In this document: one piece after another, positions 13,683 through 54,716 of the stretch
How positions within the stretch are numbered: position 1 is the first letter of the stretch
How the letters are laid out: each line of letters begins with the position of its first letter
NCBI GenBank assembly: GCA_003649205.1
Contig: QMRC01000003.1
Span: forward strand, 128,001-192,000
Origin: Thermoprotei archaeon
GTDB taxonomy: Archaea > Thermoproteota > Thermoprotei > Thermoproteales > B15-G16
DNA length: 64,000 nucleotides
Direction of reading: 5' to 3'
Notes under the pieces: model-generated
Database searches by the model: none
Told to the model about the DNA's origin: nothing
The model's input: only the letters and a program-made list of their open reading frames with translations
Position numbers and translations under genes: made by a program

Positions 13683-13685
13683 TAA

Positions 13686-19777: not shown

Positions 19778-19877
19778 ACATCAATCACCGCGTTCTCTCT
19801 TACTTGCTCTTGTGTTGCTTAGTGAGATTGAGATACTGATAATTTACTATTTACTGTTGTTTATCTATGGTTTCACG

Positions 19878-21743: not shown

Positions 21744-21746
21744 TTA

Positions 21747-23303: not shown

Positions 23304-23355
23304 ATCGACAACAAGGAGAATTCACTTATTAACGTTAACCAACTCAGGTGTAAAC

Positions 23356-24339: not shown

Positions 24340-24957
24340 ACCACTAACCAAGTACTTCTGAAGGAGTATGGCAAGAGCTATTGTCGGTAACGTAGCTATC
24401 GTAGCTGCTGCGGACACAGCACCCCACATAAGTCCATGAGCTTCCCTCATACCAGCGATGGTTACAGTCATTACCCTGACATTGACGTCTGTCAGTATTA
24501 GTGCATACATGAACTCGTTCCACGACCAGATGAAGGTGAATAGTACCGTAATGAGGAACCCTGGTAGAGCTAGTGGAAACACTATCTTGAAGAGCACGGT
24601 AAACCTACTACAACCGTCGACTAACGCTGCCTCCTCAAGTTCTACAGGTATGCTCATGATGAAGCTCCTCATCAACCACACAGCAAACGGAATTCCGATA
24701 CATAGATGTGGTATTATGACCGCTGGGTACGTGTCGAGAATTCCTAGTGCTCTGAAGAGTAGGTAGTAAGGTATGACAGCTACTACCGGTGGTAGGAACC
24801 TAATCGATAGTATCCAGAATAGTAGGTGTGGACCATCAACTCTGTACCTAGCAAATCCGTATCCTGAGAAGAATCCTAGGAATGCAGAGATTATTGACGT
24901 ACATCCAGCTATTATCAACGTATATAAAGGTTTCATGGTTTTCCTATCCGGATACAT
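24313..24957 (-). pseudogene. Truncated MalG-type permease (mirror copy)
   Basis: Identical to 10472..11116. Confidence 0.55.
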
Positions 24958-25086
24958 TCGTTATCTCTTGACTTACACAATTCTATGTATAACACCGCTA
25001 TGCAATACTACTCAAGCTATATTCCTAGTTTGTTAATTTCATGATATATTGTGGGAATTGTATTGCTTCTGAAGCTAGGTATAACG

Positions 25087-26241
25087 CTAGTGATACCTAT
25101 ATGTTCCTTTTCTACCACTCAGTGCCTTACTTATGAGATTTCGTACTATGTCCTCGGTTACTTCTATTGGGTTGTTTTCTAGATTTCTTCGGTACCCTAG
25201 TGTGTGCTTTACGTAGGTTTCTAGCTCTTCTTCTTGAACTCCTACATCTTTTACGCTATTTGGTATCTCTACTCTATCGAGAAGTTTACAGAGCTTGATT
25301 ATGAGGTCTTGTACTGTTTCTACGTTTAGTAGGTGTAGTAGTTTCTCTACTTTGTCTCTGGGTATGTGCTGTAGATCTAGCTCAAGTACGTACGGTAGTG
25401 TTAATGCGTTTGCTAGTCCATGATGTACGTCGTGGTGTGTTGTGAGGTAGTACCCCATTGCGTGTACGAGTACTGTCCCTGCTACGTTTATTGCCATTCC
25501 AGCTAGTGTTGCTGCTAGGTGTAGCTTCTCTTGTGCGGTTTCATCACCCTTTGCTGCTCTCTCCACATTCTCTATGATGAGTTTAATGGCTTCGAGTGCT
25601 AGCACATCGGATATTGGTGTTGATCTCTTGGATACGTATGCTTCTAGTGCATGTGAGAGTGCGTCCATTGCTGTCCACGTAATTAGCTTAGGTGGTAGGT
25701 ACCTAATGACGTCGGGATCCACTATAGCTACCTTAGGTATTATCGCTGGACCGACAACTACTACCTTCCTCTTCTCCTTAACTATGGTCAGTACTGAGTT
25801 CTTCGTTACCTCACTGCCTGTACCACAGGTCGTTGGTATTGCTACGATTGGTAGTGCGTTACCTGTAACTACCTTAGGGTAGAGGTACTCCTCGACTCTA
25901 CCACCTTGAACAGCTACTACAGCAGCTGCCTTACCCACATCAATTACACTACCACCACCAAAGGCAACTATGACCTCACTACCTCTCTCCCTAGCGAATT
26001 CACTACATCTCTGTGCTGTTTCAGTTGATGGATTGGGTTCAACGCCGCTGAATACATGGACCTCTACTCCAGCTTCTTGAAGTAGCTTGGTTATCTTATC
26101 GAGGTAACCTGATTCCTTAGCGAATCTCCTACCAACTACTAAGAGTGCTCTTGAACCGAAGTTCCTAACTACTTGACCTACCTCCTTGATAGATCCTCTA
26201 CCGAATATTACCTCAGTTGGACAGTAGTACCTGAAGTACAT
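25087..26241 (-). CDS. Iron-containing alcohol dehydrogenase (mirror copy)
   Basis: Identical to 9188..10342. Confidence 0.92.
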   Translation of the reverse strand: MYFRYYCPTEVIFGRGSIKEVGQVVRNFGSRALLVVGRRFAKESGYLDKITKLLQEAGVEVHVFSGVEPNPSTETAQRCSEFARERGSEVIVAFGGGSVIDVGKAAAVVAVQGGRVEEYLYPKVVTGNALPIVAIPTTCGTGSEVTKNSVLTIVKEKRKVVVVGPAIIPKVAIVDPDVIRYLPPKLITWTAMDALSHALEAYVSKRSTPISDVLALEAIKLIIENVERAAKGDETAQEKLHLAATLAGMAINVAGTVLVHAMGYYLTTHHDVHHGLANALTLPYVLELDLQHIPRDKVEKLLHLLNVETVQDLIIKLCKLLDRVEIPNSVKDVGVQEEELETYVKHTLGYRRNLENNPIEVTEDIVRNLISKALSGRKGTYRYH

Positions 26242-26281
26242 GTACCCACCTCGAGTAGAGTACGTACTTGATGAAGATAAA

Positions 26282-26938
26282 TCAGTACCCACTTAAGAGC
26301 CTTTTCACCAGCTCTGGAATGTCGGTAACGATACCGTCAACACCTAGCTTCACCGCATTGATGATCTGACCCTCATCATTTAGAGTCCACACAACGACCT
26401 TTATACCGTGTGTATGTAGTTGCTCAACTAGTTCTCGATCTAGAAAGTCAATCCTTATAGATACACCATCCGCCTGAGCACACTTAGCTACGTAGTATGG
26501 GTCGACAGGTCTCTCACTGAGACTAATAAATGTCCGTGACTTAGGTAGTAGCTCCTTGATTACTCTTAGCGAGTAGTGGTAAGCTGATGAGAAGTAGAGT
26601 CTCTCATCTGAGATACCCAACTCCATAACTAACTTACACACTGAATCCTCTATCCTTGGTACCTTGAGGTCTAGCCAGATACCGATAGGGTACTTCAACA
26701 CTTCACTTAGTAAGTCCCTCAGCTTAGGTGCTCTAGATCGCTTTACGCTGTACCTAATTGACTCTATGAACCTCTTAACTCTAGATACTGGAACTACTGG
26801 ATCTGGTGGGTGGTACGCAATTAACTCTCCACCGTACGAATATACATCAATCTCAATGACATTAGCACCCTGTGAGATACACTTTGCTACCCTACCGAGT
26901 GAGTTACACGCATGAGCTATCACTAGTGGTTTCAACAT
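26282..26938 (-). CDS. GDPD family protein (mirror copy)
   Basis: Identical to 8491..9147. Confidence 0.85.
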   Translation of the reverse strand: MLKPLVIAHACNSLGRVAKCISQGANVIEIDVYSYGGELIAYHPPDPVVPVSRVKRFIESIRYSVKRSRAPKLRDLLSEVLKYPIGIWLDLKVPRIEDSVCKLVMELGISDERLYFSSAYHYSLRVIKELLPKSRTFISLSERPVDPYYVAKCAQADGVSIRIDFLDRELVEQLHTHGIKVVVWTLNDEGQIINAVKLGVDGIVTDIPELVKRLLSGY

Positions 26939-26940
26939 AC

Positions 26941-28047
26941 TTATACAACTAGTTTGCCTGTTTTCCTATCGAATATGTGTACCCTGTTGAAGTCAAGTAC
27001 GACCCATACTTCTTGACCTGCTGCAATTTCTGAGGCTGTTGATGCGGATTCAATGACCTTAATTATGTGATCACCAATCCTGACGTTGACTATGACCTCC
27101 CTACCAAGTGGTTCTGTAACGTACACTACACCCTTGATAGCTGATGTAGCTGGTCCCTTACTTATCTTGAGGTCTTCTGGTCTAACACCGAACACTACCT
27201 CGCTACTACTAGCTCTAGACCTAACGACTTCACCTAGCTCTCTAGGTAGCTCTATCTCAAATGACGTGAAGTCAAGTACATACCTACCATCTCTCTCCAC
27301 CAGTGAGCAATCGAGTAAGTTCATTGGTGGTGCACCTATGAATCCAGCAACGAACACATTCGCTGGTCTATTGTAGATCTCATCAGGTGGGCCATACTGC
27401 TGTAGCTTACCCTCATTCATGACTGCAATCCTGTCAGCTAAGGTCATAGCTTCTGCTTGGTCGTGCGTTACGTAGACAGTAGTTATCTTGAGCTCCTTCT
27501 GAAGTCTCTTCAACTCAGCTCTCATAAGTATCCTCAACTTAGCATCTAGGTTGCTAAGTGGCTCGTCTAGGAGGAAGACATCAGGTTGCTTCACAAGTGC
27601 TCTTGCTAGTGCTACTCTCTGCTGCTGACCACCAGAGAGCTGTGCTGGGTACCTATCCAGTAGGTGATCTATCTGAAGCATCTTAGCAACTTCCCTAACC
27701 CTCCTAGCGATCTCCTGCTTAGGTAACTTCTTTAACTTCAGTGGAAACGCTATGTTGTCAAACACGGTCATGTGTGGGTACAGTGCATAGCTCTGAAAGA
27801 CCATACCTATGTTCCGGTCCTTAGGAGGCCAGTCTGTTACATCAATCTCATCGAAGTATATCCTACCCTTAGTCGGTTTGTAGATGCCAGCTATACAGAA
27901 GAGAGTTGTTGTCTTACCACAACCAGAGGGACCTAGCAATACAACGAATTCACCATCCTTAATCTCTAGGTTTAAACCATCTACAGCCTTAACACTACCG
28001 AAGTACTTACAGAGATCAACTAACCTCACACTAACCACATACCTCAC
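26941..28047 (-). CDS. Sugar ABC ATPase (mirror copy)
   Basis: Identical to 7382..8488. Confidence 0.95.
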   Translation of the reverse strand: MRYVVSVRLVDLCKYFGSVKAVDGLNLEIKDGEFVVLLGPSGCGKTTTLFCIAGIYKPTKGRIYFDEIDVTDWPPKDRNIGMVFQSYALYPHMTVFDNIAFPLKLKKLPKQEIARRVREVAKMLQIDHLLDRYPAQLSGGQQQRVALARALVKQPDVFLLDEPLSNLDAKLRILMRAELKRLQKELKITTVYVTHDQAEAMTLADRIAVMNEGKLQQYGPPDEIYNRPANVFVAGFIGAPPMNLLDCSLVERDGRYVLDFTSFEIELPRELGEVVRSRASSSEVVFGVRPEDLKISKGPATSAIKGVVYVTEPLGREVIVNVRIGDHIIKVIESASTASEIAAGQEVWVVLDFNRVHIFDRKTGKLVV

Positions 28048-28055
28048 CTCCTAGA

Positions 28056-28940
28056 TTAAGCACCCTTAACACCACCAACCTGAACCTGCATGAGATACTT
28101 CTGAGTTAAGACGAAGAAGACTAAGGGTGGTATACAGTAGAATAGTGCTGTTGCTGCTAGTAGTGAGTAGTCTACGTACCTAAACTCACCAATTAGGTTG
28201 AGTACGTGAACTGATAGTGGGAAGAGGTTGGGATCGAAGAGGAATGTGTATGCGAATATGAACTCATTCCAGCCTGCTAGAAATGCAAAGATCGATACAG
28301 CAGCTATACCTGGCTTGACCAGAGGTAGAATTACCTTCCTCCAGGCCTGTAACCTACTACATCCATCTACGAGAGCTGATGCCTCGACATCCCATGGTAT
28401 TGCGTCAAAGAATCCCTTAATCAACCAAGCCGCCATAGGTATTTCGAATGCTGCCTTAGCAATTATGACGCCAAATAGCGTATTGATCAGACCCATTAGG
28501 TGGAGTAGGTAGAATGTAGCTATGAGAAGTGTGATACCAGGGAAGGCGTGTAGTGCTATTATGAGGAGTAGCATCTTGTCTCTAAGTGGGAACTCTATTC
28601 TTGAGAGAGCATAACCAGCTAGTAGAGCAATCGATACCTCAAAGACCGTAACACCACCTGCTATGATTAGTGAGTTCAGTGCTATAGGCCATATCATCGG
28701 TATAGTGACTTCACCAAACTTGATCTCCTGCCATAAGAATCTCCAGCCCCTGATCGAGAAGTTTGTCGGTATGAAACCAACTAGTACCCTATCACTGATT
28801 GACTGCATGAAGAGCCATAGGTACATCATTATGAGTGGTATCGTAGCAGCAGTCATAACACCATATATCACAGCCTTCATCAATGCTCTCTTAATTCTAT
28901 ACGAGTACGGATTCACTACCGATCTCCTACCCCTATACAT
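28056..28940 (-). CDS. ABC permease, MalG type (mirror copy)
   Basis: Identical to 6489..7373. Confidence 0.92.
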   Translation of the reverse strand: MYRGRRSVVNPYSYRIKRALMKAVIYGVMTAATIPLIMMYLWLFMQSISDRVLVGFIPTNFSIRGWRFLWQEIKFGEVTIPMIWPIALNSLIIAGGVTVFEVSIALLAGYALSRIEFPLRDKMLLLIIALHAFPGITLLIATFYLLHLMGLINTLFGVIIAKAAFEIPMAAWLIKGFFDAIPWDVEASALVDGCSRLQAWRKVILPLVKPGIAAVSIFAFLAGWNEFIFAYTFLFDPNLFPLSVHVLNLIGEFRYVDYSLLAATALFYCIPPLVFFVLTQKYLMQVQVGGVKGA

Positions 28941-28951
28941 GGCATCACCCC

Positions 28952-29941
28952 CTAAGCAATCTCAATCTTTGCAGGCGATATCATCCTCCTGAACTTGAAC
29001 ACCTTCATGTAAGCGACAACACATATAATCGAAACAATGACCAGCACCATAGCTAGTGCAGCGCCAAAACCTAGCTCAAGATGTTCAAATGCTTGGTGGT
29101 ATGCAAATAGCGACCAAACCTCTGTAGCATAGAATGGGCCACCATTGGTCACTATCAGGATGTACTCGTAAGATGCTAGGAGACTTAGCGTCTGCCACGC
29201 TGTAACAAACATGAGTGGCCACTTCAGCAGTGGTAGGATTATGTCCTTAATTATTCTCCACTCAGAAGCACCATCAACACGAGCAGCGATTATGTAGTCT
29301 CTAGGTATTGACTTGAGAGCTGATGAGAACACAATCATACCGAATGAACAACCAACGAAGCCGTTGATGAGTATTATGAAGAGCATGGGGTACTCCATCA
29401 ACCAGTTAATTGGCTTATCGCTGAGACCAAGAGCGAGAACAAATTGATTGAGTAAACCATACTCAGTTGGGTCAAGTACCCATAACCACAGTAGACCATA
29501 GACAACTGGTGGTGAGGATCGCGGTAGTAGCCAGAGAGCCCTATAGAAGAGAGCACTCCTCTCATCCATGTAGTAAGTGAGTAGAGCAAGGAGAAGACCA
29601 ACGAAGACATTCCACAGCAACGTACAGGAAACGTAGATTGCAGTATTCACAACAACCTTCATCGTAAATGGATGCTTACCTATGTTGAAGTAATTCTCAA
29701 GACCAACCCAATGCCACTCAGCTCTCCTAATACTCATGTCCGTAAACGAGAGAAAGACAGTTAGGAATACAGGACCAAACCAAAAGAGAGCAATCATGAC
29801 AATACATGGGCCTAGGAAGATGGTAAGTAGTAGGAACTTCCTAGCTCTAGGGCTCAGTTTACTCCTTGAACGATGTAGCCTTCTAGAGGACATCAGGGGT
29901 AATTGTGCAGGTAGGGTAAAAAAGAATTTCCTTTTAGACAT
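28952..29941 (-). CDS. ABC permease, MalF type (mirror copy)
   Basis: Identical to 5488..6477. Confidence 0.9.
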   Translation of the reverse strand: MSKRKFFFTLPAQLPLMSSRRLHRSRSKLSPRARKFLLLTIFLGPCIVMIALFWFGPVFLTVFLSFTDMSIRRAEWHWVGLENYFNIGKHPFTMKVVVNTAIYVSCTLLWNVFVGLLLALLTYYMDERSALFYRALWLLPRSSPPVVYGLLWLWVLDPTEYGLLNQFVLALGLSDKPINWLMEYPMLFIILINGFVGCSFGMIVFSSALKSIPRDYIIAARVDGASEWRIIKDIILPLLKWPLMFVTAWQTLSLLASYEYILIVTNGGPFYATEVWSLFAYHQAFEHLELGFGAALAMVLVIVSIICVVAYMKVFKFRRMISPAKIEIA

Positions 29942-30099
29942 ATTGATGTATAAAGCGAGTTACTTATACCTATTCATTAATCCCTACTACTTTAGCTAGT
30001 TAAGAAACTGGTGAAAGTGTACGATCAGTGAATGATCTGGTCTCAGTATTGATCTCCTAAAATTACTTTTCTCTCCTAAGTACTACGGGTGATTCTCTC

Positions 30100-30429
30100 A
30101 TGACAGAAGTACGAGTAGCTAGGCTAAGCAATATAATCGAGGTAATCGACGAGGTATTTAATGGCGATACCTACGACTACTTACTCACTGCAATCCTGAA
30201 TAGGGACATAGATGGTGTTAAGACGGTAGTGGAGAAGGTAGCTCAAATAGTTTCCACAAGAACGGGTGTAGACCTAGGTACTGTACGTGTTCACGTGTAC
30301 GACTACGTTGTAGGTATTGTTGAGAGTATTATAGAGGATTTTGTTCTTCTGAAAAGAAAGCTTGAGGAACTTAGAGATTTAGATGCTAAGGGAGGTAGAG
30401 GGGGAGAAAATAGGGAGTTTACTCCGTGA
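30100..30429 (+). CDS. Hypothetical protein (mirror copy)
   Basis: Identical to 5000..5329. Confidence 0.6.
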   Translation: MTEVRVARLSNIIEVIDEVFNGDTYDYLLTAILNRDIDGVKTVVEKVAQIVSTRTGVDLGTVRVHVYDYVVGIVESIIEDFVLLKRKLEELRDLDAKGGRGGENREFTP

Positions 30430-31936
30430 TCACGACTTCTTTAGCTAGCTCTGGATCTGCCTTTATTGAGTCTATCATGAACTTTAGTGCCTCATCTGGC
30501 TTCATCTTACCCATCTCAACAGCTGCAATAGCGTCAAAGATTATCTTCTTGTACTTGCTCCATAGTGGGTGCATTGGCTCGAATGTCGTGTAGTCTAGCA
30601 TGTATGCTACATCGCTTAGGAACTTAGCTTTCTTCATCTCTGGGTGCTCTAGGCTTGCCTTTCTAACGGGTATGTGTGCACTGCCAACAGCGTGCTTTAC
30701 ATCGAATTCTGGTTGCGTTACTAGTGCTAGTATTAGTGCAGCTACTTCTGGGTGCTTGCTCTGGCTAGTTATGACGTAGACGAATGGGTGTGATAGTGTT
30801 ACTGGTTTTCCACCCTTGTATCCACTTGGTACTAGCATGAATATGAAGTTCTCCCACAGGTATGACTCAGGTACCTTACCTAGCTTGGGGTGGTATGGTA
30901 CTTTTTGCCACTCAGCCCAGTGCCATGTACCACCGAACCAGAATAATGTCTGTCCTGAGACAACTGCTGTGTGTATGGATCTCCAGGACCACGTTGTCAT
31001 GTCTGACGGTATCACCTTGTAGACCTGTGCACCCTTATAGAACCACTCCAAGGCCTTCAGCATTGCGCCCTTCTTCAGCACCATCTTACCTGTTGCTGGA
31101 TCCCATAACTTACCACCGTAAGCTAGGTAGATCTGCCACAGCTCTCCACCAGGTGTTGGTCTATGTAGTATACCGTACTTAACCAATCCCTTCTCAACTG
31201 CTTTCTTAGCTAGCTCTAGCATGTCGTCTAGTGTGAATTCTCCGCTCTTCACCTTCTCTGGTAGTGCAGCTATCTCCTCGTCTGTCCACCCAAGTGCTTT
31301 AAGTGCTGGCTTCCAAACGTAGACTGGTCTAGCTTCTGTATCCTGTGGTATTGCCCATATGTGTCCCTTGTAGGTTACAGCTTCCCACAGTGGTTTTGGT
31401 ATGTCGTAGAATGCGAGGTCCCAGTACTTCTCCACATACTCATCCAGTGGTATTATAATTCCCTTCTCCGCTAGCATTGGTATCCACTCGTGACCTACAG
31501 CAATTATGTCTGGTAGCTTACCCGCCTCATAAGCTAAGTAAATCTTCTTCTCGTACTCAGCCCATGGACCTCTGTGGTAGTACTTCTCAACAACCTTAAC
31601 TTCAGCTGTAATACCGAGTGTCTTCAGTAACTCTGTCAGTAGCTTTGCAGCAGCCTCTGGATTATTAACTCTAGTTACTGATGCTGGGTCACCAGCACCC
31701 CAAACCCTTAACTCAATGGTGACACCTTTCTTCAGTTCCTCTAGCTCACTCTTCAGTTTCTCGTACTCCTTCTTCAATTTCTCATACTCTTCAGGTGGAA
31801 TACCAGTGGGAGGTGGCGGTGTGGGTGGAGCTGGTGGTGCTGGTCTTGGTATGGCGTAGTAGCCAATTGCTATACCAATTACTAAGCCAACTATGAGAAG
31901 TACTATCGCTAAGGTTAATGCTCTCTTCTCAGCCAT
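30419..31936 (-). CDS. ABC substrate-binding protein (mirror copy)
   Basis: Identical to 3493..5010. Confidence 0.9.
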   Translation of the reverse strand: MAEKRALTLAIVLLIVGLVIGIAIGYYAIPRPAPPAPPTPPPPTGIPPEEYEKLKKEYEKLKSELEELKKGVTIELRVWGAGDPASVTRVNNPEAAAKLLTELLKTLGITAEVKVVEKYYHRGPWAEYEKKIYLAYEAGKLPDIIAVGHEWIPMLAEKGIIIPLDEYVEKYWDLAFYDIPKPLWEAVTYKGHIWAIPQDTEARPVYVWKPALKALGWTDEEIAALPEKVKSGEFTLDDMLELAKKAVEKGLVKYGILHRPTPGGELWQIYLAYGGKLWDPATGKMVLKKGAMLKALEWFYKGAQVYKVIPSDMTTWSWRSIHTAVVSGQTLFWFGGTWHWAEWQKVPYHPKLGKVPESYLWENFIFMLVPSGYKGGKPVTLSHPFVYVITSQSKHPEVAALILALVTQPEFDVKHAVGSAHIPVRKASLEHPEMKKAKFLSDVAYMLDYTTFEPMHPLWSKYKKIIFDAIAAVEMGKMKPDEALKFMIDSIKADPELAKEVVITE

Positions 31937-32100
31937 ATTAATGACCCTCGTGCTATAAGACACAATAGCCCTATTTAAAACTTTTCTATCCCGAATATAC
32001 GATATAGGGAAGATAAGAGGCTTAGTACCTTATATATTCACATTAATTTGCTAACTCATGAACATATATCCTTTGTATGTCTATGTAGGTTACTAGAGTT

Positions 32101-33378
32101 TTGGCGGGGGACTTCGCTTATATATCTGTATTGTGGTTGCTTTTGGGGGTTGCCTTGTCCTTAAGGTGGAGTGTTGTTGCTCTGTGTTTTGCGCTTGCTC
32201 TAATTGGTACTTCTGGTTTTAGGTTGCTAATTCCTGCTATCTCATACCTGTGTAGGTACGTCTTCGGTGTCTCTGCTCTTGCGCTTGCTCTCTTGACTGT
32301 TCTCTTTTTCGTTGCTAGGTCTATCTCCTCTGTCCTGGTTGGTAAATTATGTGAGGTTTATGGTAGGTTGAATGTAGTTGTGTTCATTGCTTTCTCTCTA
32401 TTTGCTTTAGTTTCCCTGCTATTTGCCTTTGCTGGCTCCATACATCTCGTCCTTGTTCTTAGGTTTGTGCAGGGTCTCCTAAGTGGTTTTGCTTGGGTTA
32501 CTGTTCAGCTCCTTCTTGGGCTTTCTGTTCCTAAGGAGTTTAGGGGTAGGGTTTTCGCTATCTACTTTATGCTTGGTTCTCTTGGTTTTTCCTTAGGAAA
32601 TTACCTGTACTCTGTGCTCTCTAGCTTTTCCCTATTATGGATTTGTTTTGTTGCTTTCTGCATGTACTGTGTTTGTGCTATCTTATCTCTACTCCTACCT
32701 TCGAGAGCTACGATTACTGGTATTCCCAGTGCTAACGTTCTTCGCGGTCTCTCATCTGTATTACGTGTTTTGAGGTTTGGTTTTCCTCTCTTTACTTTGC
32801 TCTTTGTTGTTCGTCTCTACTTCTCTATTGTTGGTGGTGAGCTGGGTTATGTGTACTTATGTGAGTTCACAGGTTTATCTATGGGGGTTGTTGCTAGGTT
32901 TCTAGCTATTGTTTCATTGATTTCCCTTGCTGTTAGCTATGGTATTGCTTGGTTGGGTGATAGATTTTCTGACTTACTTGCTCTATACCTATGTTCTCTA
33001 CTCCTAGTTGCTGGTTCCCTACTTCTTGCTGTCTCTAATGTGTCTCTTGTATTCCTTGGTTTCCTTCTCTTGTCGAGTAGTTTGAGGTCTCTAACACCTT
33101 TGTCTAGGAAATTTGCTACTACGTACTTTAGGTCTAGAGGTGTTGCTATTGGTCTCGTTAATTCTGTTACTAATTTAGGTGCTGCTCTTGGTGCTGTTTC
33201 TGCTGGTTATCTCTACGATGTTCTTGGTCTTGTGACTATATCTATTAGATTTCTTAGTACTTCTACTGATCTCTGTATTTTTACTCTTGTGTTAGCTCTC
33301 TTTGTATCTACTTTAGTTCTCTTCTCATGTCTCCTACTTCACATGTGGAGGTTTAGGTTAAAGAGCTCCAAATATTAG
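32101..33378 (+). CDS. MFS transporter (mirror copy)
   Basis: Identical to 2051..3328. Confidence 0.8.
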   Translation: MAGDFAYISVLWLLLGVALSLRWSVVALCFALALIGTSGFRLLIPAISYLCRYVFGVSALALALLTVLFFVARSISSVLVGKLCEVYGRLNVVVFIAFSLFALVSLLFAFAGSIHLVLVLRFVQGLLSGFAWVTVQLLLGLSVPKEFRGRVFAIYFMLGSLGFSLGNYLYSVLSSFSLLWICFVAFCMYCVCAILSLLLPSRATITGIPSANVLRGLSSVLRVLRFGFPLFTLLFVVRLYFSIVGGELGYVYLCEFTGLSMGVVARFLAIVSLISLAVSYGIAWLGDRFSDLLALYLCSLLLVAGSLLLAVSNVSLVFLGFLLLSSSLRSLTPLSRKFATTYFRSRGVAIGLVNSVTNLGAALGAVSAGYLYDVLGLVTISIRFLSTSTDLCIFTLVLALFVSTLVLFSCLLLHMWRFRLKSSKY

Positions 33379-34761
33379 GATTAATGCTGCTATTAATAGT
33401 GGTGATGTAGCTATGAGTAGGTACATAAGTAGCCTCACTACCAGGGCTCTGGGTACCTTGCTAGCTACTGCATAGAGTAGCTTGTTCAGTATTGCTGCTA
33501 GTGTTGTCAGCATGACGCTTATGCTTACGACCTTCTCACTTGCTAGACCTACCTGCAGTAGTGATAGTGCTGAGAATATCATTGCTTCAGAGCTAACTAA
33601 TCCACCTAGGATCGATAGTGTTAGTAGTCCTTTATCGCTGAAGTACATTGTTGCTAGAGTCGTCATGACGAGAATTGCTGCGAATAGTAGGCAGTACTTG
33701 ATTGCTGCTCTATAGTTTATTGGTGAGGTTAGTGATGGTACCTCTTCACCACGGATATTCATATTGGTGCTTACCTGTGGTTTGCTCTGAATTAGTTTGA
33801 GTTTAATTGGTATGTAGAGTGCGAGTGCTGTTGCTAGTAGTGCTAACATAGTTAGTACTGTGTACCTACTAATCTCTGCTGTTATAGCCATCGTGTATCT
33901 GAGGAATGTGAATATGAGTAGATTTCGTATCACCATAGCTAGATTAGCTGAGAGGATACCACCTAGCACTAGGTTGCTAACTGCATTCCTGAAACCTAAT
34001 TTCTGACCTAGTACAATTAGGTTTATTGTAGTTGCTTCACTGTGTACTAGACCTCCAAAGAATGCGAAGTAGGTCAATGCTCTCATACCACACATCTTCA
34101 CAACCATGTAGCCTATGTAGGAGATGATGAGGATTATCACGAAGAATATGTAGAGTGTCTTGAAATTGACTACGTGGAGTAGTGGATCGTAGATGTCTCT
34201 AGCTAGGAAGGGACCAAGTAGGAAGACTATGATACCTATCTCAAGAGCTGATAGGAGTTCCCTATACGTGACACCTCTAATCGCTTTAACTATATGGAGC
34301 TTAACTGCTAGCATGAATGTGATTAGTACAGAGAGAGCAACAGCTTCAAGTACGTAACCTAAACCAACAAGAACCCCAAGGACATAGGCTAGTCCTAAAG
34401 CTAGTGGAGTTGTTATTCCACTCTCCTTGAGAATGAGCATTCTATGGATTATAAAGAACAGGATTGTGAAGATGGGTGGTAGTATTAGTGGGATTAGTAC
34501 GTACTGAGCTATGTCGCTAGGCATGTAGTAGGGCGCTATTATTGTCAAGGCACCGAGTAAGCTCACGAAACCAAAGCTTCTAACACCTGGAAACTCCTTG
34601 ACATCCTCCGTATTGCCACTCTCGGCAGCTTCCTGCTTAGCCTTCTCTCTCTCAAGCCCTATGAGTGCACCAACAGCAAATGCAATGAGTGACTTCATGA
34701 GAAGTGTCCACTCAACACTCGTATTCAATCCGTGAATAACCATATCTAGCACCTGAAGCAA
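33358..34761 (-). CDS. MgtC/SapB-DUF4010 membrane protein (mirror copy)
   Basis: Identical to 668..2071. Confidence 0.85.
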   Translation of the reverse strand: MLQVLDMVIHGLNTSVEWTLLMKSLIAFAVGALIGLEREKAKQEAAESGNTEDVKEFPGVRSFGFVSLLGALTIIAPYYMPSDIAQYVLIPLILPPIFTILFFIIHRMLILKESGITTPLALGLAYVLGVLVGLGYVLEAVALSVLITFMLAVKLHIVKAIRGVTYRELLSALEIGIIVFLLGPFLARDIYDPLLHVVNFKTLYIFFVIILIISYIGYMVVKMCGMRALTYFAFFGGLVHSEATTINLIVLGQKLGFRNAVSNLVLGGILSANLAMVIRNLLIFTFLRYTMAITAEISRYTVLTMLALLATALALYIPIKLKLIQSKPQVSTNMNIRGEEVPSLTSPINYRAAIKYCLLFAAILVMTTLATMYFSDKGLLTLSILGGLVSSEAMIFSALSLLQVGLASEKVVSISVMLTTLAAILNKLLYAVASKVPRALVVRLLMYLLIATSPLLIAALILIFGAL

Positions 34762-34980
34762 AGACCATATCCTGACCTACTTAAATTCATTACTGTTATA
34801 ACAGTGACTTTAGTCCTTTATACACATTTTTATTTCTCTACCAATAGATTTATCGCTATAGTATAAGTGTTACACCACGTAAGTTATGTCTAGGTATAGC
34901 TAGTGTTTTTATCAGCGGTGCTAATGTTGTGTGGTTAAGGAGTAGACTTCTTATCCTTTACTCATGATCCTACCTATGAG

Positions 34981-35517
34981 GTGTTTATTGTGTCTTCGAG
35001 TGTTGTACCTGTGTATGCTCAGGGTTTCTTCATTATGTCGAGACTTGGCCGTGTAACTCAAATTGTTGTCTTTGATTACTATGATCCTGAGAAGTACTAC
35101 CTATCGCTACTGAGGAGAGGTTCTCTTGAGGAGGAACTGTCGAGAATTGAGGAAAATATGCAGTACTTTCTCGATGAGGAGAGGGTCTACATAAATGGTG
35201 TTCGGACCTACCCTAAGGTCATCTCTACCACTCTTAGTTTCCGTGGTGATGTGACTAGACCTTACATTACCTTCATTATTGAGTTTAGTGGTCCTATTAG
35301 GGCTGGTTTGAATAAGTACGAGGATTACTATGAGGAGGAGGTTGTTGAGTATGATTATGAGTTTACATGGTTTTTCCCTGAGGGTTGGAGAGTTAGAGGT
35401 GCTGAGCTTGCTGTTCCTTATGAGATTATTGAGGATAGGGTACTTGTTGCTAGGGTTAAGAAGGGTACTAAGGTCGGTCCTTACGAAGCCATCTTATTTG
35501 AGGTAGGGGAGAAGTAA
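34981..35517 (+). CDS. Hypothetical protein (178 aa, acidic, beta-rich)
   Basis: Uninterrupted ORF with host-like codon usage; no recognised motif. Confidence 0.75.
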   Translation: MFIVSSSVVPVYAQGFFIMSRLGRVTQIVVFDYYDPEKYYLSLLRRGSLEEELSRIEENMQYFLDEERVYINGVRTYPKVISTTLSFRGDVTRPYITFIIEFSGPIRAGLNKYEDYYEEEVVEYDYEFTWFFPEGWRVRGAELAVPYEIIEDRVLVARVKKGTKVGPYEAILFEVGEK

Positions 35518-42174: not shown

Positions 42175-44325
42175 CTAGCTAAGTAGCTTCCTAACAGCTT
42201 TATCTACAGTAGCTTTAGCGGTCTCTATATCGGTTCTGAGAGCAGCAGCCACATCGTCCAAAGGTTTACCCTGCAGTACATAAGCAATCAACGCAACTAA
42301 TTCGCTGAAGCTTAGATCTACTGAAGGGGATTCACATAACTTCCTCAATGTTGCTAAGTAAATAGCATCCATAGCTGATTCAAGTAGAATCCTCCTACTT
42401 AAGTACATCTCGAGTCTCTTCTCTTGATTTCTCGTTAACTCAATTCTCACTGACACAGGTACCCTAATACTCTTCAATACACTAGCAACAACCTCAGCAC
42501 TTAAATCCCTGTAGACACTCATTAAGCAGGTAAGTAATCTAACCTTAAATTCCCTCAATGCTTCTTCAACGTAATGTCGCATCCTAGTACTCAGTGGCTT
42601 TATCACAGCTATGTTCTTCTCACCTGTCACCTTATTGAATCGTGGAGATACATAGATTGGTAAGTACCCGTTCTTTAACCAAAAGTCAATGATGTCATTT
42701 CTAGAGAATATAGCACCGATCCAGTCAAGGTTTATACTACGTGCTTCCTCCTCGAGGAAGTTTAGTAGTTTTGAACCGTAGCCTCTTCTCTGTAGATTAG
42801 GTACTACAGCAATCCTAACAATTCTCCAGCCTCTTGTCTTAGCAGCTTCCTTAGGACCGTACCTCAGTAACTTATCTAAGACCAGTACTCCTCTTAGACC
42901 ACGTGTAATAGCTCTCTCAACATCACGAATAGGTCCTTCCTCAGCTATCTGCGCAACAGCTACAACTCCTCTATCGGAGTTGAGTATACGAATGTGGTGA
43001 TGAGGGGCGTCAAGCATGGTCATTAAGTCATCAGGTTCATTCCTGTAGTGCGCTAGAGCGAGTAAGCCATAGACTTTCCGTAGTAAATCCCTATCCTTAA
43101 CTAGCTGTTCTTGATCTACAGAAGAGTACTCCACATTCTCTGGTTTCGGTATCTCTATTGGGTCTACTCGGAGAAAGAATACTTGGTAAAGCCACTCTTC
43201 AAGTGGATCATTTGATAGGTACCTAATAGGTACCTTGAACTCGTAGACTAGTGGACTAGGTAGCTGCTTAATTAGCAGTTCAGAAGCTACCCTTCCAGAA
43301 CCTTCGTAACCGTGGACTGTAGTCACCATCATGACCTTCCTACTCTTAGCACACAACCTCCTAACACGAGCAGCACCAACAGCAGCAGCCTCATCAATCA
43401 CCGTTAATCTAGCACCAGTAGCTAACCAAGGGACAACATACCTAACTTCAAAACCCCTACCCCTAATACCCACTACACTTCCCTTCTCAGTAATTGTCTT
43501 ATAATCAATACCTAGCTTCTCTAGCCCTAGACAGAGGAACTTCATGAATGTCGTGATACTGCGTGGTGAAGGTGCTGTTACCAAAATCTCATCAGTGTAG
43601 TTATGTGCTATAGCCAGCGCAGTTGCTAGACCGAGAGCAGCGCTCTTCCCTCTACCACGATCACCTTTACCAACTAAAACCTTAAGTGTTAAGTCACTAA
43701 GCAGTCTTAAGCTATGCAAAACGAACTCGTACTGATCCTCAGTAGCACATAGCGAAAGTACCTTTCTCAACCTCTCATCAACATTCGTGATCTCGGGTGT
43801 GAACTGTCTTCGAGATAACTTACTCGGTAGATTACGCAATACCACCTCACCGCTATCAACATCAACTACAAGGATTGATCTACACAACTTAAGCGACTCA
43901 AGTAAATACCTACGGAAGGTACCTCTACCACCCTCGACACCTGGACTCCACAAACTAAGTGACTTAGTTAACCAGATACTGAATCCACCGCACCTAATCA
44001 TCTCTGATGCAGCAGAAACAGCATTAGGTCTGAAGAAGTACCTAAAATCCATAATGACAGAGCTATACTCCCTACCTAGGTAACTAGTCAGCTCATGAAA
44101 TCTAGCTACCTCAATATCATGCACAGCAAGTACCTTACGTAGGTCCCTACTATCAGTAAATGCGAGTATAGGTCTAGCTAGGTGCCCAAGTAGTGTGCTT
44201 AATACGTGTATTACTTGTTCTGTATCACCACTGAGGACTATCAGACCTCTAGCATTACAGCTCCTAACATAGTCGATGAATTGCTTAATCTCATCAGCAA
44301 TACTACCTGTAGTTCTCATAGACAT
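42175..44325 (-). CDS. tmcA: RNA cytidine acetyltransferase (TmcA/Nat10 family)
   Basis: GDRGRGKSAALG, IDEAAA, TTVHGYEGSGR, PIRY..NDPLE, AHYRNEPDDL, RIAVVP.LQRRGYGS, FWLKNGY. Confidence 0.95.
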   Translation of the reverse strand: MSMRTTGSIADEIKQFIDYVRSCNARGLIVLSGDTEQVIHVLSTLLGHLARPILAFTDSRDLRKVLAVHDIEVARFHELTSYLGREYSSVIMDFRYFFRPNAVSAASEMIRCGGFSIWLTKSLSLWSPGVEGGRGTFRRYLLESLKLCRSILVVDVDSGEVVLRNLPSKLSRRQFTPEITNVDERLRKVLSLCATEDQYEFVLHSLRLLSDLTLKVLVGKGDRGRGKSAALGLATALAIAHNYTDEILVTAPSPRSITTFMKFLCLGLEKLGIDYKTITEKGSVVGIRGRGFEVRYVVPWLATGARLTVIDEAAAVGAARVRRLCAKSRKVMMVTTVHGYEGSGRVASELLIKQLPSPLVYEFKVPIRYLSNDPLEEWLYQVFFLRVDPIEIPKPENVEYSSVDQEQLVKDRDLLRKVYGLLALAHYRNEPDDLMTMLDAPHHHIRILNSDRGVVAVAQIAEEGPIRDVERAITRGLRGVLVLDKLLRYGPKEAAKTRGWRIVRIAVVPNLQRRGYGSKLLNFLEEEARSINLDWIGAIFSRNDIIDFWLKNGYLPIYVSPRFNKVTGEKNIAVIKPLSTRMRHYVEEALREFKVRLLTCLMSVYRDLSAEVVASVLKSIRVPVSVRIELTRNQEKRLEMYLSRRILLESAMDAIYLATLRKLCESPSVDLSFSELVALIAYVLQGKPLDDVAAALRTDIETAKATVDKAVRKLLS

Positions 44326-45577
44326 GGCAACTACATGCAATGAATGTTATCGTACCTAGATCAACGTCAAGACCACTTCTCTTAAGTTCTTCCGTAATGT
44401 ACTTCATTACCTCTCTAACGGCAAATACATTGTGTACGAAGGCACTCCTAAAGTCGTGGCTCCTCATGTACACCGTAGCATGTAGCTTACCATCCCTAAT
44501 CATGAATTGCCACAGTATGAAACAAGGTGGGTTCTCTGTCTTGACCAAGTCCTCGTAAGGACTCCAGAACACAGCAACAGCTTGTCTAGTACTCGGTTCA
44601 CTACGTAACTTATCGACGATAGCTCGCAATTGATCACCGAACTTAACCCTCAACCTCTCACCATAGCTATACTCATAACCCTCAATACTCCTACCCTCGA
44701 GAATAGCTCTACAGTACTCCTCAAGATACTTCTTAGCACCAAGTGGGTACTCTCTAGGTACTTCATCACAGAGAGGATCAAGTACGTGTATCACGACATT
44801 CATTAACTCCTTCGTAATTCCAAACCTAGACTCAACACATCTACCAAATCTCTCAATTAGTCGAATCACTTCCCTATAGGCATCAGCTACTGACCTCGCA
44901 ACAACGACTGTAAGGTTCTGTGATAGAGTCTCCACATACCCCCCGCTCACCTTACTCGTTACCTTGACTATATATGGCTCTAAGTCATATGCACCAGGAT
45001 CGAATAACCTATACTTAATACCCTTCACCTCAATCTCAACAGCATTCCAAGGTTCCTGAATACAGCCTCTAATCACCTTTCTCAGCATCTCCCTATCCGT
45101 CACACCTAGCATATCAATGACAATTACCTGATCACGAAATCTCTCAATAGCTTCAAGCGGCAGATTTGGTATGTAGGCCGTTGGTGCATCGCAATTCAGC
45201 ACTCTCCTACTCTCTGGATCCACACCATACCTCCACAACTTAATCATAGCTTCACCACTACGATGACCGCTTGTATCGTGACCAACAACTACTAGGTACC
45301 TAATGTTTGGATTAGCTAGCACATTACATACTACCTTCTCAATCCCTATGTTAGCTGTCTTACAGAAACCAGCTATTGCTACACCAAGCTCAATAGCTGT
45401 CTTCACCAATTCATTACCTACCTCATCATCCAGTGGTACCATTACAGCAACGGGATGGAACTTATTACCAAGTACGTAATTCCCATCCTCAACAGTCCAC
45501 CTATCCGGAACATTACACTTACTACACTCCTTACCTCTCCACGAAACCTTAACATGCTGAATAACACTGTAGCTCAT
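44303..45577 (-). CDS. thyA: Fusion: MtrA-like corrinoid-binding domain + archaeal-type thymidylate synthase domain
   Basis: N-half W.VE.GNY.LG, CKTANIGIEKVV.N...NPNIRYL, GHRSG, IERF..QV, DPGAY; C-half YSYGERL, DQL, TRQA, PPC, RSHD......HN, HVY. Confidence 0.88.
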   Translation of the reverse strand: MSYSVIQHVKVSWRGKECSKCNVPDRWTVEDGNYVLGNKFHPVAVMVPLDDEVGNELVKTAIELGVAIAGFCKTANIGIEKVVCNVLANPNIRYLVVVGHDTSGHRSGEAMIKLWRYGVDPESRRVLNCDAPTAYIPNLPLEAIERFRDQVIVIDMLGVTDREMLRKVIRGCIQEPWNAVEIEVKGIKYRLFDPGAYDLEPYIVKVTSKVSGGYVETLSQNLTVVVARSVADAYREVIRLIERFGRCVESRFGITKELMNVVIHVLDPLCDEVPREYPLGAKKYLEEYCRAILEGRSIEGYEYSYGERLRVKFGDQLRAIVDKLRSEPSTRQAVAVFWSPYEDLVKTENPPCFILWQFMIRDGKLHATVYMRSHDFRSAFVHNVFAVREVMKYITEELKRSGLDVDLGTITFIACSCHVYENYR

Positions 45578-45839: not shown

Positions 45840-47342
45840 TCACTTGTTCTCTCTCTTGTTCATTACCTTACCACACCATTCAGGATGTGTCAATCCTCGT
45901 TCTTCCGGTGTTCCTGGTATCAGGTTATCTAGCACGATGCCGACTATAGCTGCAACGGCCATACCTGTCTCGAGTATAATCTCAACTATTTCACCTAACC
46001 ACATTAGTTGTGGAGGTAGCAGTGCGACGATTGCTCCTCTACCTTTAACACCGTATGGGTTGTAACCTTTCATCCACATAGGTACGCTTAGACCGAGGTA
46101 CAGTGACATGCCTACGATCAGTAGGTTTCTAGGTGATTTCAAGTCTATTAGCGTAAGCAGCGAAGCTCCTACAGCAGCTATCATACCGAATACTACGAGA
46201 TATAGACCTCCAATAATTGGCTTAGGAATTGTCGCCATGAGTGCTCCGAACTTACCGAAGAACCCCATTAGCAGCATGAATACCGCACCTAGCTGAATGA
46301 CGTATCTACTAGCTACCCTAACTAACCCAATGACACCTATGTTCTCTGAATAACTCGTGTACCCTCCAGCACAACCGAAGATACCACCAATTAGGCAGCC
46401 AAGGCCTTCAGCACCGAGACCCTTGGATATTGTCTTTTCGTCTGGTGGTGGTGCCTCACTCACCCTACATACTGTGTGGTAGTCACCTATAGACTCAACC
46501 ATCGATGCTACGTAAGCAGCTAACATACCGAGGATGAACGCTGGTACGAACTTAGGTAAACCCCATGGAAATGGCTTCGGTATGTTTAACCAAGGTAATT
46601 CCATGAGTGGCCTTAAATTCACGTACCCTGGATCACCAGGTTTTAGGAAGCCAGTTATCGAGAGTAGTAGTGCAACTACGTAGCTGATCATGACACCGAG
46701 TACTACTGGGAACAGCATGAATATCCTGTACCTCCTGCCAAGTACTTGACTAAACAGCACAATGAGTACCACTGTAAGTAGTGCAAGACCCCAGTTACCA
46801 CTTGCCTGTGAAGCTCCTACATCAGCTAGTGAGAGCCCAATAACTATTATCGTTGGCCCGATAGATACAGGTGTTATGTACCTTCTCAATAGACCAGCTA
46901 ATCCACTGTACCCAATCACGATCTCAAAGAATGAAGCACCTATGATAGCTCCTGTTGTGTAGAGTAGTATTTCGCTACCTCTAATCCCCATGCTCTTACA
47001 GGTAGCTATGATAGCTACTAGAGGTCCTAGAAAGGAGAATGAGGATCCTTGTACGATAGGTAACCCACTACCTACCTTTTTCCACGTTTGCAGTAGTGTA
47101 GTAATACCTGCACAGAAGAATTGAATACATACTAGCTTTGCTGTATCCTCTGGCGTTAGCTCCATTAGTGATGCTAGGAGTAGCGGAACTGCGACTGTAG
47201 CTCCAAACATTGTGAGGTAGTGTTGGAATCCTAGGAACAGTGCTGTAAGGAGTGGTGGTTTCTCTTCGATTCCATAGATTATGAATCTCTTTGTTTTAGT
47301 GTCTCTACTCTCTCTGCTAATTTCTTCAGGTAGCTTACTCAG
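45840..47342 (-). CDS. NCS2 (uracil/xanthine) nucleobase permease
   Basis: LPIVQGSSFSF, ESIGDY, TSYSENIG, P.PIIGG, RNLLI; the TM1 motif YGIEEKPP...GFQHYL lies upstream of ATG 47210, so the start is extended to CTG 47342. Confidence 0.9.
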   Translation of the reverse strand: MSKLPEEISRESRDTKTKRFIIYGIEEKPPLLTALFLGFQHYLTMFGATVAVPLLLASLMELTPEDTAKLVCIQFFCAGITTLLQTWKKVGSGLPIVQGSSFSFLGPLVAIIATCKSMGIRGSEILLYTTGAIIGASFFEIVIGYSGLAGLLRRYITPVSIGPTIIVIGLSLADVGASQASGNWGLALLTVVLIVLFSQVLGRRYRIFMLFPVVLGVMISYVVALLLSITGFLKPGDPGYVNLRPLMELPWLNIPKPFPWGLPKFVPAFILGMLAAYVASMVESIGDYHTVCRVSEAPPPDEKTISKGLGAEGLGCLIGGIFGCAGGYTSYSENIGVIGLVRVASRYVIQLGAVFMLLMGFFGKFGALMATIPKPIIGGLYLVVFGMIAAVGASLLTLIDLKSPRNLLIVGMSLYLGLSVPMWMKGYNPYGVKGRGAIVALLPPQLMWLGEIVEIILETGMAVAAIVGIVLDNLIPGTPEERGLTHPEWCGKVMNKRENK

Positions 47343-54379: not shown

Positions 54380-54716
54380 GCGCCCTAGGGCCGGTAGTAG
54401 CCCACCTTCTGTCTTGCGGGATTAGTCTCAGGGCCCACCCGGGCCTTCGTGCGGGGACCTCATCGGCCCCTATTTGGCCCTTTTGCCGTGGGCTGGTCGT
54501 CTCACCCTCCTCCCACCATTGTCAGTGGTTAGGACCGCGTTACCGCGGTCCATCCCACCTCATCCACATCCAGTGGGAGGGGTCTCGTTTCTGTACCCTA
54601 TCCCGGAGATTTCCCCCGGCGGCTTACGCCGCCACGGCCCCCGCTACCTGGTGGAGCTTCCTCAGGGGGCCCGTCGCCGGAGCCCCCCGACGCCCGCTAC
54701 CGGCCCTAGGGCGCCC
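54380..54716 (-). ncRNA. rnpB: RNase P RNA (archaeal)
   Basis: GC-rich island; terminal P1 helix GCGCCCTAGGGCCGGTAG; GAGGAAGCTCCACC / ACAGAAGGTGGGCTAC P4 strands; ACAGAAAC; TTTATAAA at 54738-45. Confidence 0.93.

Follow-up and report, generated by a model that had tools for sequence, protein, structure and literature searches.

What is a corrinoid protein of the methanogen type doing on a thymidylate synthase, in an archaeon that appears not to be a methanogen? The question is raised by one gene in a stretch of 64,000 nucleotides from a Thermoprotei archaeon (GenBank assembly GCA_003649205.1, contig QMRC01000003.1, positions 128,001 to 192,000; the whole stretch is called the window here). 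The gene lies on the minus strand at 44303..45577, starts with ATG, ends with a stop codon at 44303-44305 and encodes 424 residues, in which an MtrA-like domain precedes a thymidylate synthase domain of the ThyA type. An original prediction, made from the DNA letters, had connected the two domains in a corrinoid-linked route to deoxythymidine monophosphate (dTMP), and this interpretation is partly supported by our analysis. Judged from its sequence, the gene is very probably the thymidylate synthase of its host, with a minimal ThyA core placed behind a cobamide-binding domain of the MtrA type. Two observations go beyond the prediction: the counterpart of MtrA Glu54 is replaced by alanine, and the fusion belongs to a large family with two forms.

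Both domains were found in one chain and above cut-off, as the prediction had assigned them. In a Pfam scan of the fusion, PF04208 (MtrA) matched residues 22-183 with 137.9 bits (cut-off 25), and PF00303 (Thymidylat_synt) matched residues 312-422 with 52.3 bits (cut-off 24.3). Among the NCBIfam models, the MtrA subfamily NF002126 scored 159.3 bits (cut-off 161), the canonical MtrA equivalog TIGR01111 scored 132.2 bits, well below its cut-off of 249.15, and TIGR03283 ('thy_syn_methano') matched residues 224-422 over profile positions 2-196 of 201 with 171.8 bits, 2.8 under its cut-off of 174.55. The solved MtrA chains 5laa, 5l8x and 8q3v were sequence matches to the fusion with E values of 1e-33 to 1e-25. 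The motifs named earlier are all in place, both in the N-terminal half (CKTANIGIEK 72-81, NPNIR 89-93, GHRSG 104-108, IERF 144-147 and DPGAY 193-197) and in the C-terminal half (PPC 350-352, RSHD 372-375, AFVHN 379-383 and HVY 418-420). The soluble MtrA-type domain spans approximately residues 20-208 (44954..45520, minus strand), as delimited by PF04208, superposition on 5laa and the cobalamin-contact residues, and the minimal archaeal ThyA domain spans residues 212-424 (44306..44944, minus strand), as delimited by TIGR03283, PF00303 and fold matches.

An AlphaFold2 model, for which 26 fusion proteins were aligned (mean predicted local distance difference test score, pLDDT, 89.6; predicted template modelling score, pTM, 0.57), contains two well-defined domains joined by a disordered hinge of residues 209-211 (44945..44953, minus strand; pLDDT below 50). 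The modelled N-domain superimposes on cobalamin-bound MtrA (5laa) with a template modelling (TM) score on the target of 0.94 and a root-mean-square deviation of 1.5-1.8 Å, and the TM scores to solved MtrA overall are 0.92-0.94. The modelled C-domain matches many thymidylate synthase chains in Foldseek with a probability of 1.00 and TM scores on the target of 0.5-0.79. The absence of a membrane anchor, also predicted, is borne out by a rough hydrophobicity test, in which no hydrophobic segment was found (the highest 19-residue Kyte-Doolittle mean is 1.35), and by the chain itself, which continues directly into ThyA.

The cobalamin site of the N-domain is largely that of MtrA. According to the accessible parts of Wagner 2016, His84 of MtrA is cobalt's lower axial ligand, Glu54 forms a hydrogen bond with this histidine, and the meander consensus GAIPF-Y/F-xEN is the most conserved motif. 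Counted along the alignment with 8q3v, His84 corresponds to His105 of the fusion (checked codon 45263..45265, minus strand), the conserved cobalt ligand that the prediction had proposed; it is retained in 24 of 26 fusions and is Tyr in two. Of the cobalamin contacts listed in the same parts of Wagner 2016, Tyr34 (Tyr18 in MtrA), Thr74 (Thr53), Asn76 (Asn55), Gly78 (Gly57), Val82 (Val61) and Asn85 (Asn64) are also kept, which together with His105 makes seven. From sequence and model, we infer that the N-domain binds a cobamide with His105 as its lower ligand. The likeness to MtrA of the Na+-pumping methyl-tetrahydromethanopterin:coenzyme M methyltransferase extends to the fold, the His ligand, the contacts to the nucleotide tail and propionamides, and the shared motifs NPNIR, RFxxQV and DPGA, but the fusion has no membrane helix, a diverged meander and Ala at the Glu54 site, and its host has no detected McrA. 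By Pfam the N-domain belongs to the MtrA family, yet its sequence features do not make it subunit A of an Mtr complex: it lacks the membrane helix and the operon context, has neither Glu54 nor the meander motif, and falls short of the equivalog score. It also differs from the cytoplasmic MtrA homologues of methanogens, which the available text of Wagner 2016 describes as stand-alone proteins of 170-180 residues, in being part of a 424-residue chain.

In the ThyA half, Tyr303, Tyr305, Gly306, Arg331, Pro351, Cys352, Arg372, Ser373, Asp375, Asn383, Ser416, His418 and Tyr420 are invariant in all 26 fusions. We take their counterparts in E. coli ThyA to include the nucleophile Cys146, the phosphate-binding Arg126, Arg166 and Ser167, the pterin-contact Asp169, the Asn177 that determines specificity for deoxyuridine monophosphate (dUMP), the general base Tyr94, and His207 and Tyr209; by this equivalence Asp375 is presumably the pterin-contact Asp. 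The codons of the nucleophile Cys352 in the Pro-Cys motif (44522..44524, minus strand) and of the Arg372-Ser373-His-Asp375 ... Asn383 segment (44429..44464, minus strand) were checked, and the dUMP-type Asn noted in the prediction is the invariant Asn383. The same catalytic columns are found in all four groups of an alignment of 68 ThyA domains, that is, in type I and type II fusions (defined below) as well as in stand-alone ThyA. The chain stops four residues past Tyr420, so the C-terminal tail with which bacterial ThyA closes over folate is missing, as it is across the TIGR03283 family. Like the methanogen-type ThyA of that family, the fusion has a minimal core of approximately 200 residues with all catalytic motifs and an end just past His-x-Tyr; unlike it, the fusion carries a 210-residue N-terminal MtrA-type domain, falls 2.8 bits below the equivalog cut-off and is placed by a quick tree outside the main stand-alone clade. 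Changes specific to the type I pocket that might hint at a loss of pterin binding were sought, and this idea was set aside: only peripheral columns vary (Tyr234 versus Trp, His382 versus Met/Leu, Thr255 and Glu257), and they are uninterpretable.

The closest structural matches of the C-domain are PDB entries 9iqu (TM 0.79) and 9iqc (TM 0.70), at 21-23% identity. Their titles, the part of these entries used here, name a dCMP hydroxylase and a flavin-dependent monooxygenase with deoxycytidine monophosphate (dCMP) and flavin adenine dinucleotide (FAD). By analogy, these phage enzymes may be a precedent for a minimal ThyA fold that works with a non-folate cofactor, which would favour a cobamide-linked reaction in the fusion; the match to 9iqu may also reflect merely a common small fold size. 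Going by the titles, they resemble the fusion in minimal fold size and non-folate cofactor but differ from it in substrate (dCMP), cofactor (FAD) and the lack of a corrinoid domain.

The genome of the host (G000; 2.07 Mb in 31 contigs, 93.8% complete, 4.2% contamination, with the window on contig C3) contains little else that could make dTMP. PF00303 and PF04208 each match three sites in it, namely the window gene, its mirror copy and, on contig C8, a paralog. The paralog is an intact MtrA-ThyA open reading frame (ORF) of 527 residues (G000:C8:66568-68163; locus L004 430-2013), whose MtrA-like half is interrupted by an insertion of approximately 40 residues and whose ThyA half by a longer one; it retains GHRSG, Pro-Cys, RSHD and the Asn, and in FastTree it groups in a clade of forms of approximately 525 residues. 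On its 3' side lie two similar ORFs of 131 and 132 residues without a Pfam match, followed by a Cas4-like PD-(D/E)XK nuclease. To our knowledge, thymidylate synthases are of only two kinds, ThyA and ThyX. ThyX was not found in this 93.8% complete genome, and the sequence searches leave the two MtrA-ThyA fusions as its only thymidylate synthase candidates.

The same genome is equipped for one-carbon (C1) and corrinoid chemistry. DHFR_1 and MetF were not found in G000, nor was SHMT (PF00464), a family detected in all 14 control genomes. McrA was not found either, and the prediction of an apparent non-methanogen is supported by sequence within the limits of genome completeness. Mer, Mch and MtrH are present with scores of 458, 354 and 247 bits, the first of them above the curated cut-off, so the C1 pathway of G000 would be of the tetrahydromethanopterin (H4MPT) type. 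The corrinoid equipment consists of CobS, a RACo-type reductive activator that scores 806 bits against the G340 protein, and three B12-binding corrinoid proteins of the classical kind. MtrH, at C1:284338-285174, belongs to a corrinoid methyltransferase cassette at G000:C1:284338-293554 (loci L008 and L078) with the order MtrH, B12-binding protein (DxHxxG), URO-D-type methyltransferase, MFS transporter, URO-D and URO-D, and the RACo-type activator lies approximately 6.6 kb downstream. In another genome of the phylum, G340, the cassette order is B12-binding protein, URO-D, MtrH and RACo, and in G280 a weak MtrH (90 bits) is fused to a B12-binding domain. These MtrH-corrinoid cassettes presumably resemble the Mto systems of methoxydotrophy; if so, the Thermoproteales-like host would be a scavenger of methyl groups that feeds them into H4MPT. 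The prediction's statement that the window has no further mtr genes was examined indirectly: no stand-alone MtrA was found in G000, where PF04208 occurs only in the fusions and MtrH lies on another contig; the other mtr subunits were not searched individually.

The fusion is a widespread family, which by sequence has two forms: type I, to which the window gene belongs, keeps the His and has no C-terminal tail, and type II has a tail and has lost the His. Among 1.84 billion representatives, a profile of 26 fusions had 15,666 matches at E≤0.001, 404 of them at E≤1e-30; the best 150 matches were examined. Purpose-built hidden Markov models were used to classify 159 rows with an N-terminal extension before the ThyA domain, at least two of whose locus ORFs are identical to library proteins: 55 had the His and no tail, 88 the tail and no His, 12 neither and four both, so that the His was kept in 59. 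The tail is PF14251 ('PterinBD-DUF4346'), approximately 95 residues long, which was found by Pfam in all three ORFs scanned and also, in precomputed Pfam annotation, in type II proteins; it is absent from the window protein and from G000. NPNIR and the His are lost in all 17 type II ORFs of the reference genomes. PF14251 also accompanies an MtrA-like domain alone, in proteins of 280-400 residues that include bacterial ones, or a DHPS-like pterin-binding barrel, and the His and Glu are both kept in 43 of 47 MtrA-like+DUF4346 proteins, compared with the His in none of 46 MtrA-ThyA-DUF4346 proteins. The two fusion forms share the first two domains in the same order, the ThyA catalytic columns and the position of sole thymidylate synthase in many genomes, but type I keeps the His and NPNIR and lacks the DUF4346 tail.

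In a FastTree of 68 ThyA domains, type II and the main stand-alone group each form a clade, with supports of 95 and 100, and type I can be placed on one side of a branch (74) with two subclades; the supports are local and do not fix how type I, type II and stand-alone forms branch relative to one another. The window protein falls in a group of 18 with the single copy of G280, and of the two G000 fusions it is the one nearer to that copy. Truncated derivatives also exist: P0021 (320 residues), its relatives of similar length and a 352-residue ORF of G304 (G304:C6:269501-270118; L013) have a His-bearing N-domain followed by approximately 45 ThyA residues and are 48-60% identical to the window protein in the MtrA-like half, and the G304 genome has ThyX. 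The N-domain can, as these sequences suggest, outlive the ThyA function. In public databases, type II is annotated as 'thymidylate synthase' (NCBI, JGI), and type I is unnamed or called 'tetrahydromethanopterin S-methyltransferase subunit A'. A literature search, with subscription journals and supplements outside its range, found no paper on an MtrA-ThyA fusion, DUF4346/PterinBD, a corrinoid-dependent dTMP route or the entries 9iqu and 9iqc. In the accessible texts, 'thymidylate' is absent from PMC4915002, PMC9635834 and PMC11291895, and MtrA, 'fused' and 'fusion' are absent from PMC9931769.

The distribution of the two forms was followed in a sample of 401 genomes of the phylum. Type I occurs in six of them (G000, G280, G283, where it is cut by a contig end, G340, G292 and G316), and type II in 17, comprising all 12 genomes of family f4 and G174, G400, G047, G119 and G063 (loci L029, L033, L035-L037, L039, L042-L051 and L054). 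ThyX is found in 275 of the 401 genomes, in agreement with the expectation that it is the commoner enzyme of the phylum, but in none of the six type I genomes and in two of the 17 with type II. Two families of the same order that lack the fusion have ThyX in 23 of 23 (f2) and 10 of 12 genomes (f3), and within the class ThyX and the fusion are nearly complementary. In G280 the type I protein is the single ThyA/ThyX candidate, and no ThyX is present. One ThyA-like ORF (a 285-residue open frame in G328:C39:5264-6990, L074, a locus at a contig end) has ThyX approximately 0.8 kb away on the opposite strand; its family otherwise has ThyX as a rule.

The corrinoid genes follow the two forms in part. 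CobS was detected in none of the 17 type II genomes and in three of the six with type I, namely G000, G280 and, at a weak level, G340. MtrH at E≤1e-10 was detected in five of six type I and two of 17 type II genomes (149 of 401 overall). Both trends fit a corrinoid site that, going by its sequence, works in type I and is dead in type II. Elsewhere in the sample, 12 genomes have a stand-alone MtrA-like gene at a distance of 0.3-5 kb from MtrH, and MtrH is close by in one (G105) of the six nearest stand-alone MtrA-like relatives of the fusion. A generalisation that every soluble MtrA-like protein serves ThyA was ruled out by family f13 (e.g. G001, G012 and G060), in which 49 of 56 genomes have an MtrA-like ORF of 155-190 residues that covers query residues ~35-170 at 26-33% identity, and which has ThyX in 55 of 56 genomes, CobS in 56 of 56 and MtrH in 0 of 56, so that its MtrA-like protein occurs with neither of the known partners. 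The role of MtrA-like proteins in non-methanogens is called unclear in the accessible parts of PMC9635834 and PMC11291895. The latter describes, in the same parts, an MtrA-like-MtrH fusion of Asgard archaea, which resembles the window protein as a soluble MtrA-like domain of a non-methanogen fused to a partner; the partner is MtrH there and ThyA here.

What the N-domain contributes to the reaction is less certain than the identity of the enzyme. The reading that we tentatively favour, drawn from sequence, fold and context, is that dUMP, once activated by Cys352, receives a methyl group relayed by a cobamide on the N-domain. The cobamide would acquire its methyl group, in the simplest case, through an MtrH-type methyl-H4MPT:corrinoid methyltransferase, and a RACo-type activator would keep it in the Co(I) state. 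The flexible hinge would carry methyl-Co(III) to the ThyA site, where, as in every ThyA enzyme, Cys352 would attack C6 of dUMP. The C5 enolate would then accept the methyl group directly, giving dTMP and Co(I) with no oxidation of the pterin to its dihydro form. More speculatively, the replacement of Glu54 by Ala might loosen the link between His and cobalt and so make the methyl group a better electrophile. Such a relay appears to be the simplest coupling of the two domains, because the only known job of MtrA is to hold a methyl group on cobalt, dTMP is dUMP plus a methyl group, and the Cys-activated enolate is a nucleophile. In the SAM (S-adenosylmethionine)-dependent C5-pyrimidine methyltransferases, a Cys-activated enolate attacks an electrophilic methyl group, and in MetH methyl-Co(III) serves as the methyl donor.

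Several lines of evidence, from sequences and models, are consistent with the methyl relay: the position of the fusion as sole thymidylate synthase, the intact ThyA chemistry, the intact corrinoid site, the corrinoid machinery of the host, the co-occurrence data, the pairing of MtrA-like proteins with MtrH elsewhere and the lack of detected DHFR_1, SHMT and MetF. Since type II has lost NPNIR and the His, the corrinoid site of type I is probably under selection, and a purely structural role for it is unlikely. The relay would work like MetH and other corrinoid methyltransferases, in which methyl-pterin methylates Co(I), methyl-Co(III) methylates a nucleophile, the cobamide is His-on and a reductive activator is used; cassettes with MtrH, B12-binding protein, URO-D and RACo, as in such MetH/MtrH/MtaA-type systems, are present in G000 and G340. 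It would differ from MetH in that the acceptor is a carbon enolate of dUMP and not a thiolate, the domain is of the MtrA type and not of the PF02310 type, and the His has no acidic partner. The broader claim, that the fusion represents a third mechanistic class of thymidylate synthase in which dUMP is methylated from methyl-Co(III) on a fused domain, drawing on methyl-H4MPT with the pterin staying reduced, seems to us rather doubtful.

A number of results weigh against the relay. In the corrinoid site, the position of MtrA Glu54 is occupied by Ala75 (codon 45353..45355, minus strand; from the 8q3v alignment and the 26 aligned fusions), and none of the 26 fusions has Glu there; they differ in this from the stand-alone MtrA-like ORFs of the phylum, in which Thr-Glu-Asn is retained in 20 of 20. 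The meander motif reads APTAYIPN in the 8q3v alignment and departs from the consensus, and nine tail-less fusion rows have Tyr, Trp or Phe at the His site, which indicates that the His is not indispensable. The type I ThyA pocket cannot be told apart from that of stand-alone archaeal ThyA, and this holds for the pterin-contact Asp as well. The model does not predict the mutual position of the two domains or the geometry between His105 and Cys352, and no C1 or cobamide genes recur around the fusion, its G280 copy or the six nearest stand-alone MtrA-like relatives.

The genome comparisons point the same way. G340, G292 and G316 carry a stand-alone ThyA besides the type I protein, so G000 and G280 are the genomes that depend on type I alone. 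In six complete genomes of genus g10, none of which has ThyX, MtrH or CobS, type II is the only thymidylate synthase match, and four complete type II genomes lack both CobS and MtrH. Stand-alone ThyA is common and type II has no His, and the same ThyA core appears, by sequence, to work without a corrinoid. CobS was not found in G292, G316 or G283, and G283 is also without MtrH; the co-occurrence counts come from few and related genomes and therefore overstate independence. The proposal that MtrH co-occurs with the fusion as its dedicated loader was downgraded, because MtrH sits in corrinoid cassettes of its own (G000 and G340) or in a fusion with a B12-binding domain (G280). In the original prediction, the MtrA domain was suggested to supply the C1 unit or to recycle the cofactor. 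Given a ThyA pocket like that of stand-alone enzymes, a His-less form as the sole thymidylate synthase of complete genomes, and an MtrH with corrinoid partners of its own, the claim about the C1 unit went further than anything that we computed shows.

Near-equal to the methyl relay is the explanation that the fusion performs ordinary ThyA chemistry, in which methylene-H4MPT provides both the methylene group and the hydride, dihydromethanopterin is released, and the cobamide domain is an accessory and not the C1 donor. The accessory could couple dTMP synthesis allosterically to the cobamide supply, or it could stabilise or cap the minimal ThyA core. Catalytic and pterin-contact columns that match those of stand-alone and type II forms agree with this explanation, as does the service of these forms as thymidylate synthases without the His, MtrH or CobS. 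The presence of an MtrA-fold N-domain in both fusion forms fits a common structural role, Mer and Mch show that methylene-H4MPT is available, and MtrH has its other corrinoid partners. Ordinary chemistry would, however, leave unexplained why the seven cobalamin contacts and NPNIR are conserved in type I and decayed in type II, and also why CobS and MtrH co-occur with type I. We know of no MtrA-type domain that acts as a sensor, which also counts against this explanation. The C1 donor of the stand-alone archaeal ThyA family is described as little studied in the available parts of PMC9012536 and PMC9931769. In the same parts of PMC9931769, dTMP is reported to form from labelled formaldehyde and modified folates in cell extracts of two archaea, in favour of ordinary chemistry, but the enzymes were not identified in those experiments, and extracts that contain Mer cannot, in our view, separate a methylene from a methyl donor.

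An improbable third possibility is that the corrinoid serves as a redox helper, with a logic like that of ThyX: the carbon would come from methylene-H4MPT and two electrons from the Co(I)/Co(II) cobamide, and the pterin would leave as H4MPT, with no need for a dihydropterin reductase. This would reconcile the invariant pterin-contact Asp with the conserved corrinoid site, and it would suit a genome in which DHFR_1 was not found and a RACo-type reductive activator is present. We know of no precedent for a corrinoid as a hydride surrogate in such a reaction, and the cobalt would need to be re-reduced at low potential in every turnover. The benefit is further blurred because users of H4MPT require a dihydromethanopterin reductase for cofactor synthesis anyway. 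That the carbon donor and the reductant can be separate is shown by ThyX, as stated in the accessible part of PMC9931769. The likeness to ThyX (PF02511) is confined to the hypothesis of a bound non-pterin cofactor that participates while the pterin is not oxidised; there is no relation in sequence or fold, and ThyX uses a flavin where the fusion has a putative corrinoid.

It is very improbable that the protein is not a thymidylate synthase and that its ThyA-fold domain makes another C5-modified pyrimidine nucleotide, such as a hydroxymethyl or hydroxy form, or uses a different substrate, in the manner of other ThyA-fold enzymes. The dCMP enzymes 9iqu and 9iqc as best structural matches of the C-domain, the two diverged paralogs in G000 and the TIGR03283 score 2.8 bits short of its cut-off could be read in this way, but G000 would then be left without any thymidylate synthase, the dUMP-type Asn383 is invariant, and the single ThyA/ThyX candidate of G280 is this same protein, to whose copy the window copy is nearest in the tree.

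The last alternative, that two adjacent genes were joined by an assembly or sequencing error, would gain from the fact that the contig bearing the fusion is itself an artefact but is refuted by a 93%-identical relative from another assembly (L001) and a 57%-identical relative in the reference genome G280, both matched over residues 1-424 in one frame, by the presence of both Pfam domains in 26 of 120 clusters among the homology-search matches listed, by the continuity of the same architecture in dozens of 50%-identity representatives, and by contigs of a sequencing run from a different study, which span the domain junction (window 44920-44965) with 0 gaps in two records. A stop codon or frameshift between the domains, for which the prediction had advised looking, was looked for and is absent.

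The significance of the fusion depends in part on which of these explanations holds. In any case, it ties a putative corrinoid carrier to an enzyme on which DNA synthesis of the host depends, and it turns the question of the C1 donor into one that can be tested at the bench with assays of cobamide binding, with mutants of His and Cys and by tracing isotopes. If the methyl relay is true, it would be new enzymology that joins vitamin B12 directly to DNA precursor synthesis, and a categorically new thymidylate synthase mechanism. It would also provide the first function for the widespread MtrA-like proteins of non-methanogens, which could be general biosynthetic methyl shuttles. If the corrinoid is not the donor, type I (His, no tail) and type II (tail, no His) would form a natural comparison for the roles of accessory domains.

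The artefact in the contig concerns its large-scale structure. Window positions 1-17714 and 17715-35428 are 100% complementary with no spacer and a centre at 17714/17715, and the whole of contig C3 (291,428 bp) forms a perfect palindrome, each arm of which measures 145,714 bp. The junction falls within a tRNA gene that is called twice by Rfam on opposite strands, at 17646-17719 and 17710-17783. The palindrome is almost certainly a foldback artefact of assembly, so every gene of C3 is doubled, including the fusion, with its mirror copy at C3:172306-173577, and the contig probably adds to the contamination estimate of 4.24%.

The neighbours of the fusion lie on the same strand. Downstream, a gene for a TmcA/NAT10-type RNA cytidine acetyltransferase (42175..44340, minus strand) overlaps the 3' end of the fusion by 38 nucleotides, and the same order of fusion and TmcA/NAT10-type gene is present in the 93%-identical relative. 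Upstream, a permease of the xanthine/uracil family (45840..47210, minus strand; PF00860, 286.3 bits) is separated from the fusion by a gap of 262 nucleotides. An archaeal RNase P RNA is encoded at 54389-54705 (minus strand) in the window, with 112.2 bits against a gathering score of 84. The AT skew in 2-kb bins is extreme at window 2001-4000 (+0.388) and at its mirror 32001-34000 (-0.392), far from the values in the rest of the window.

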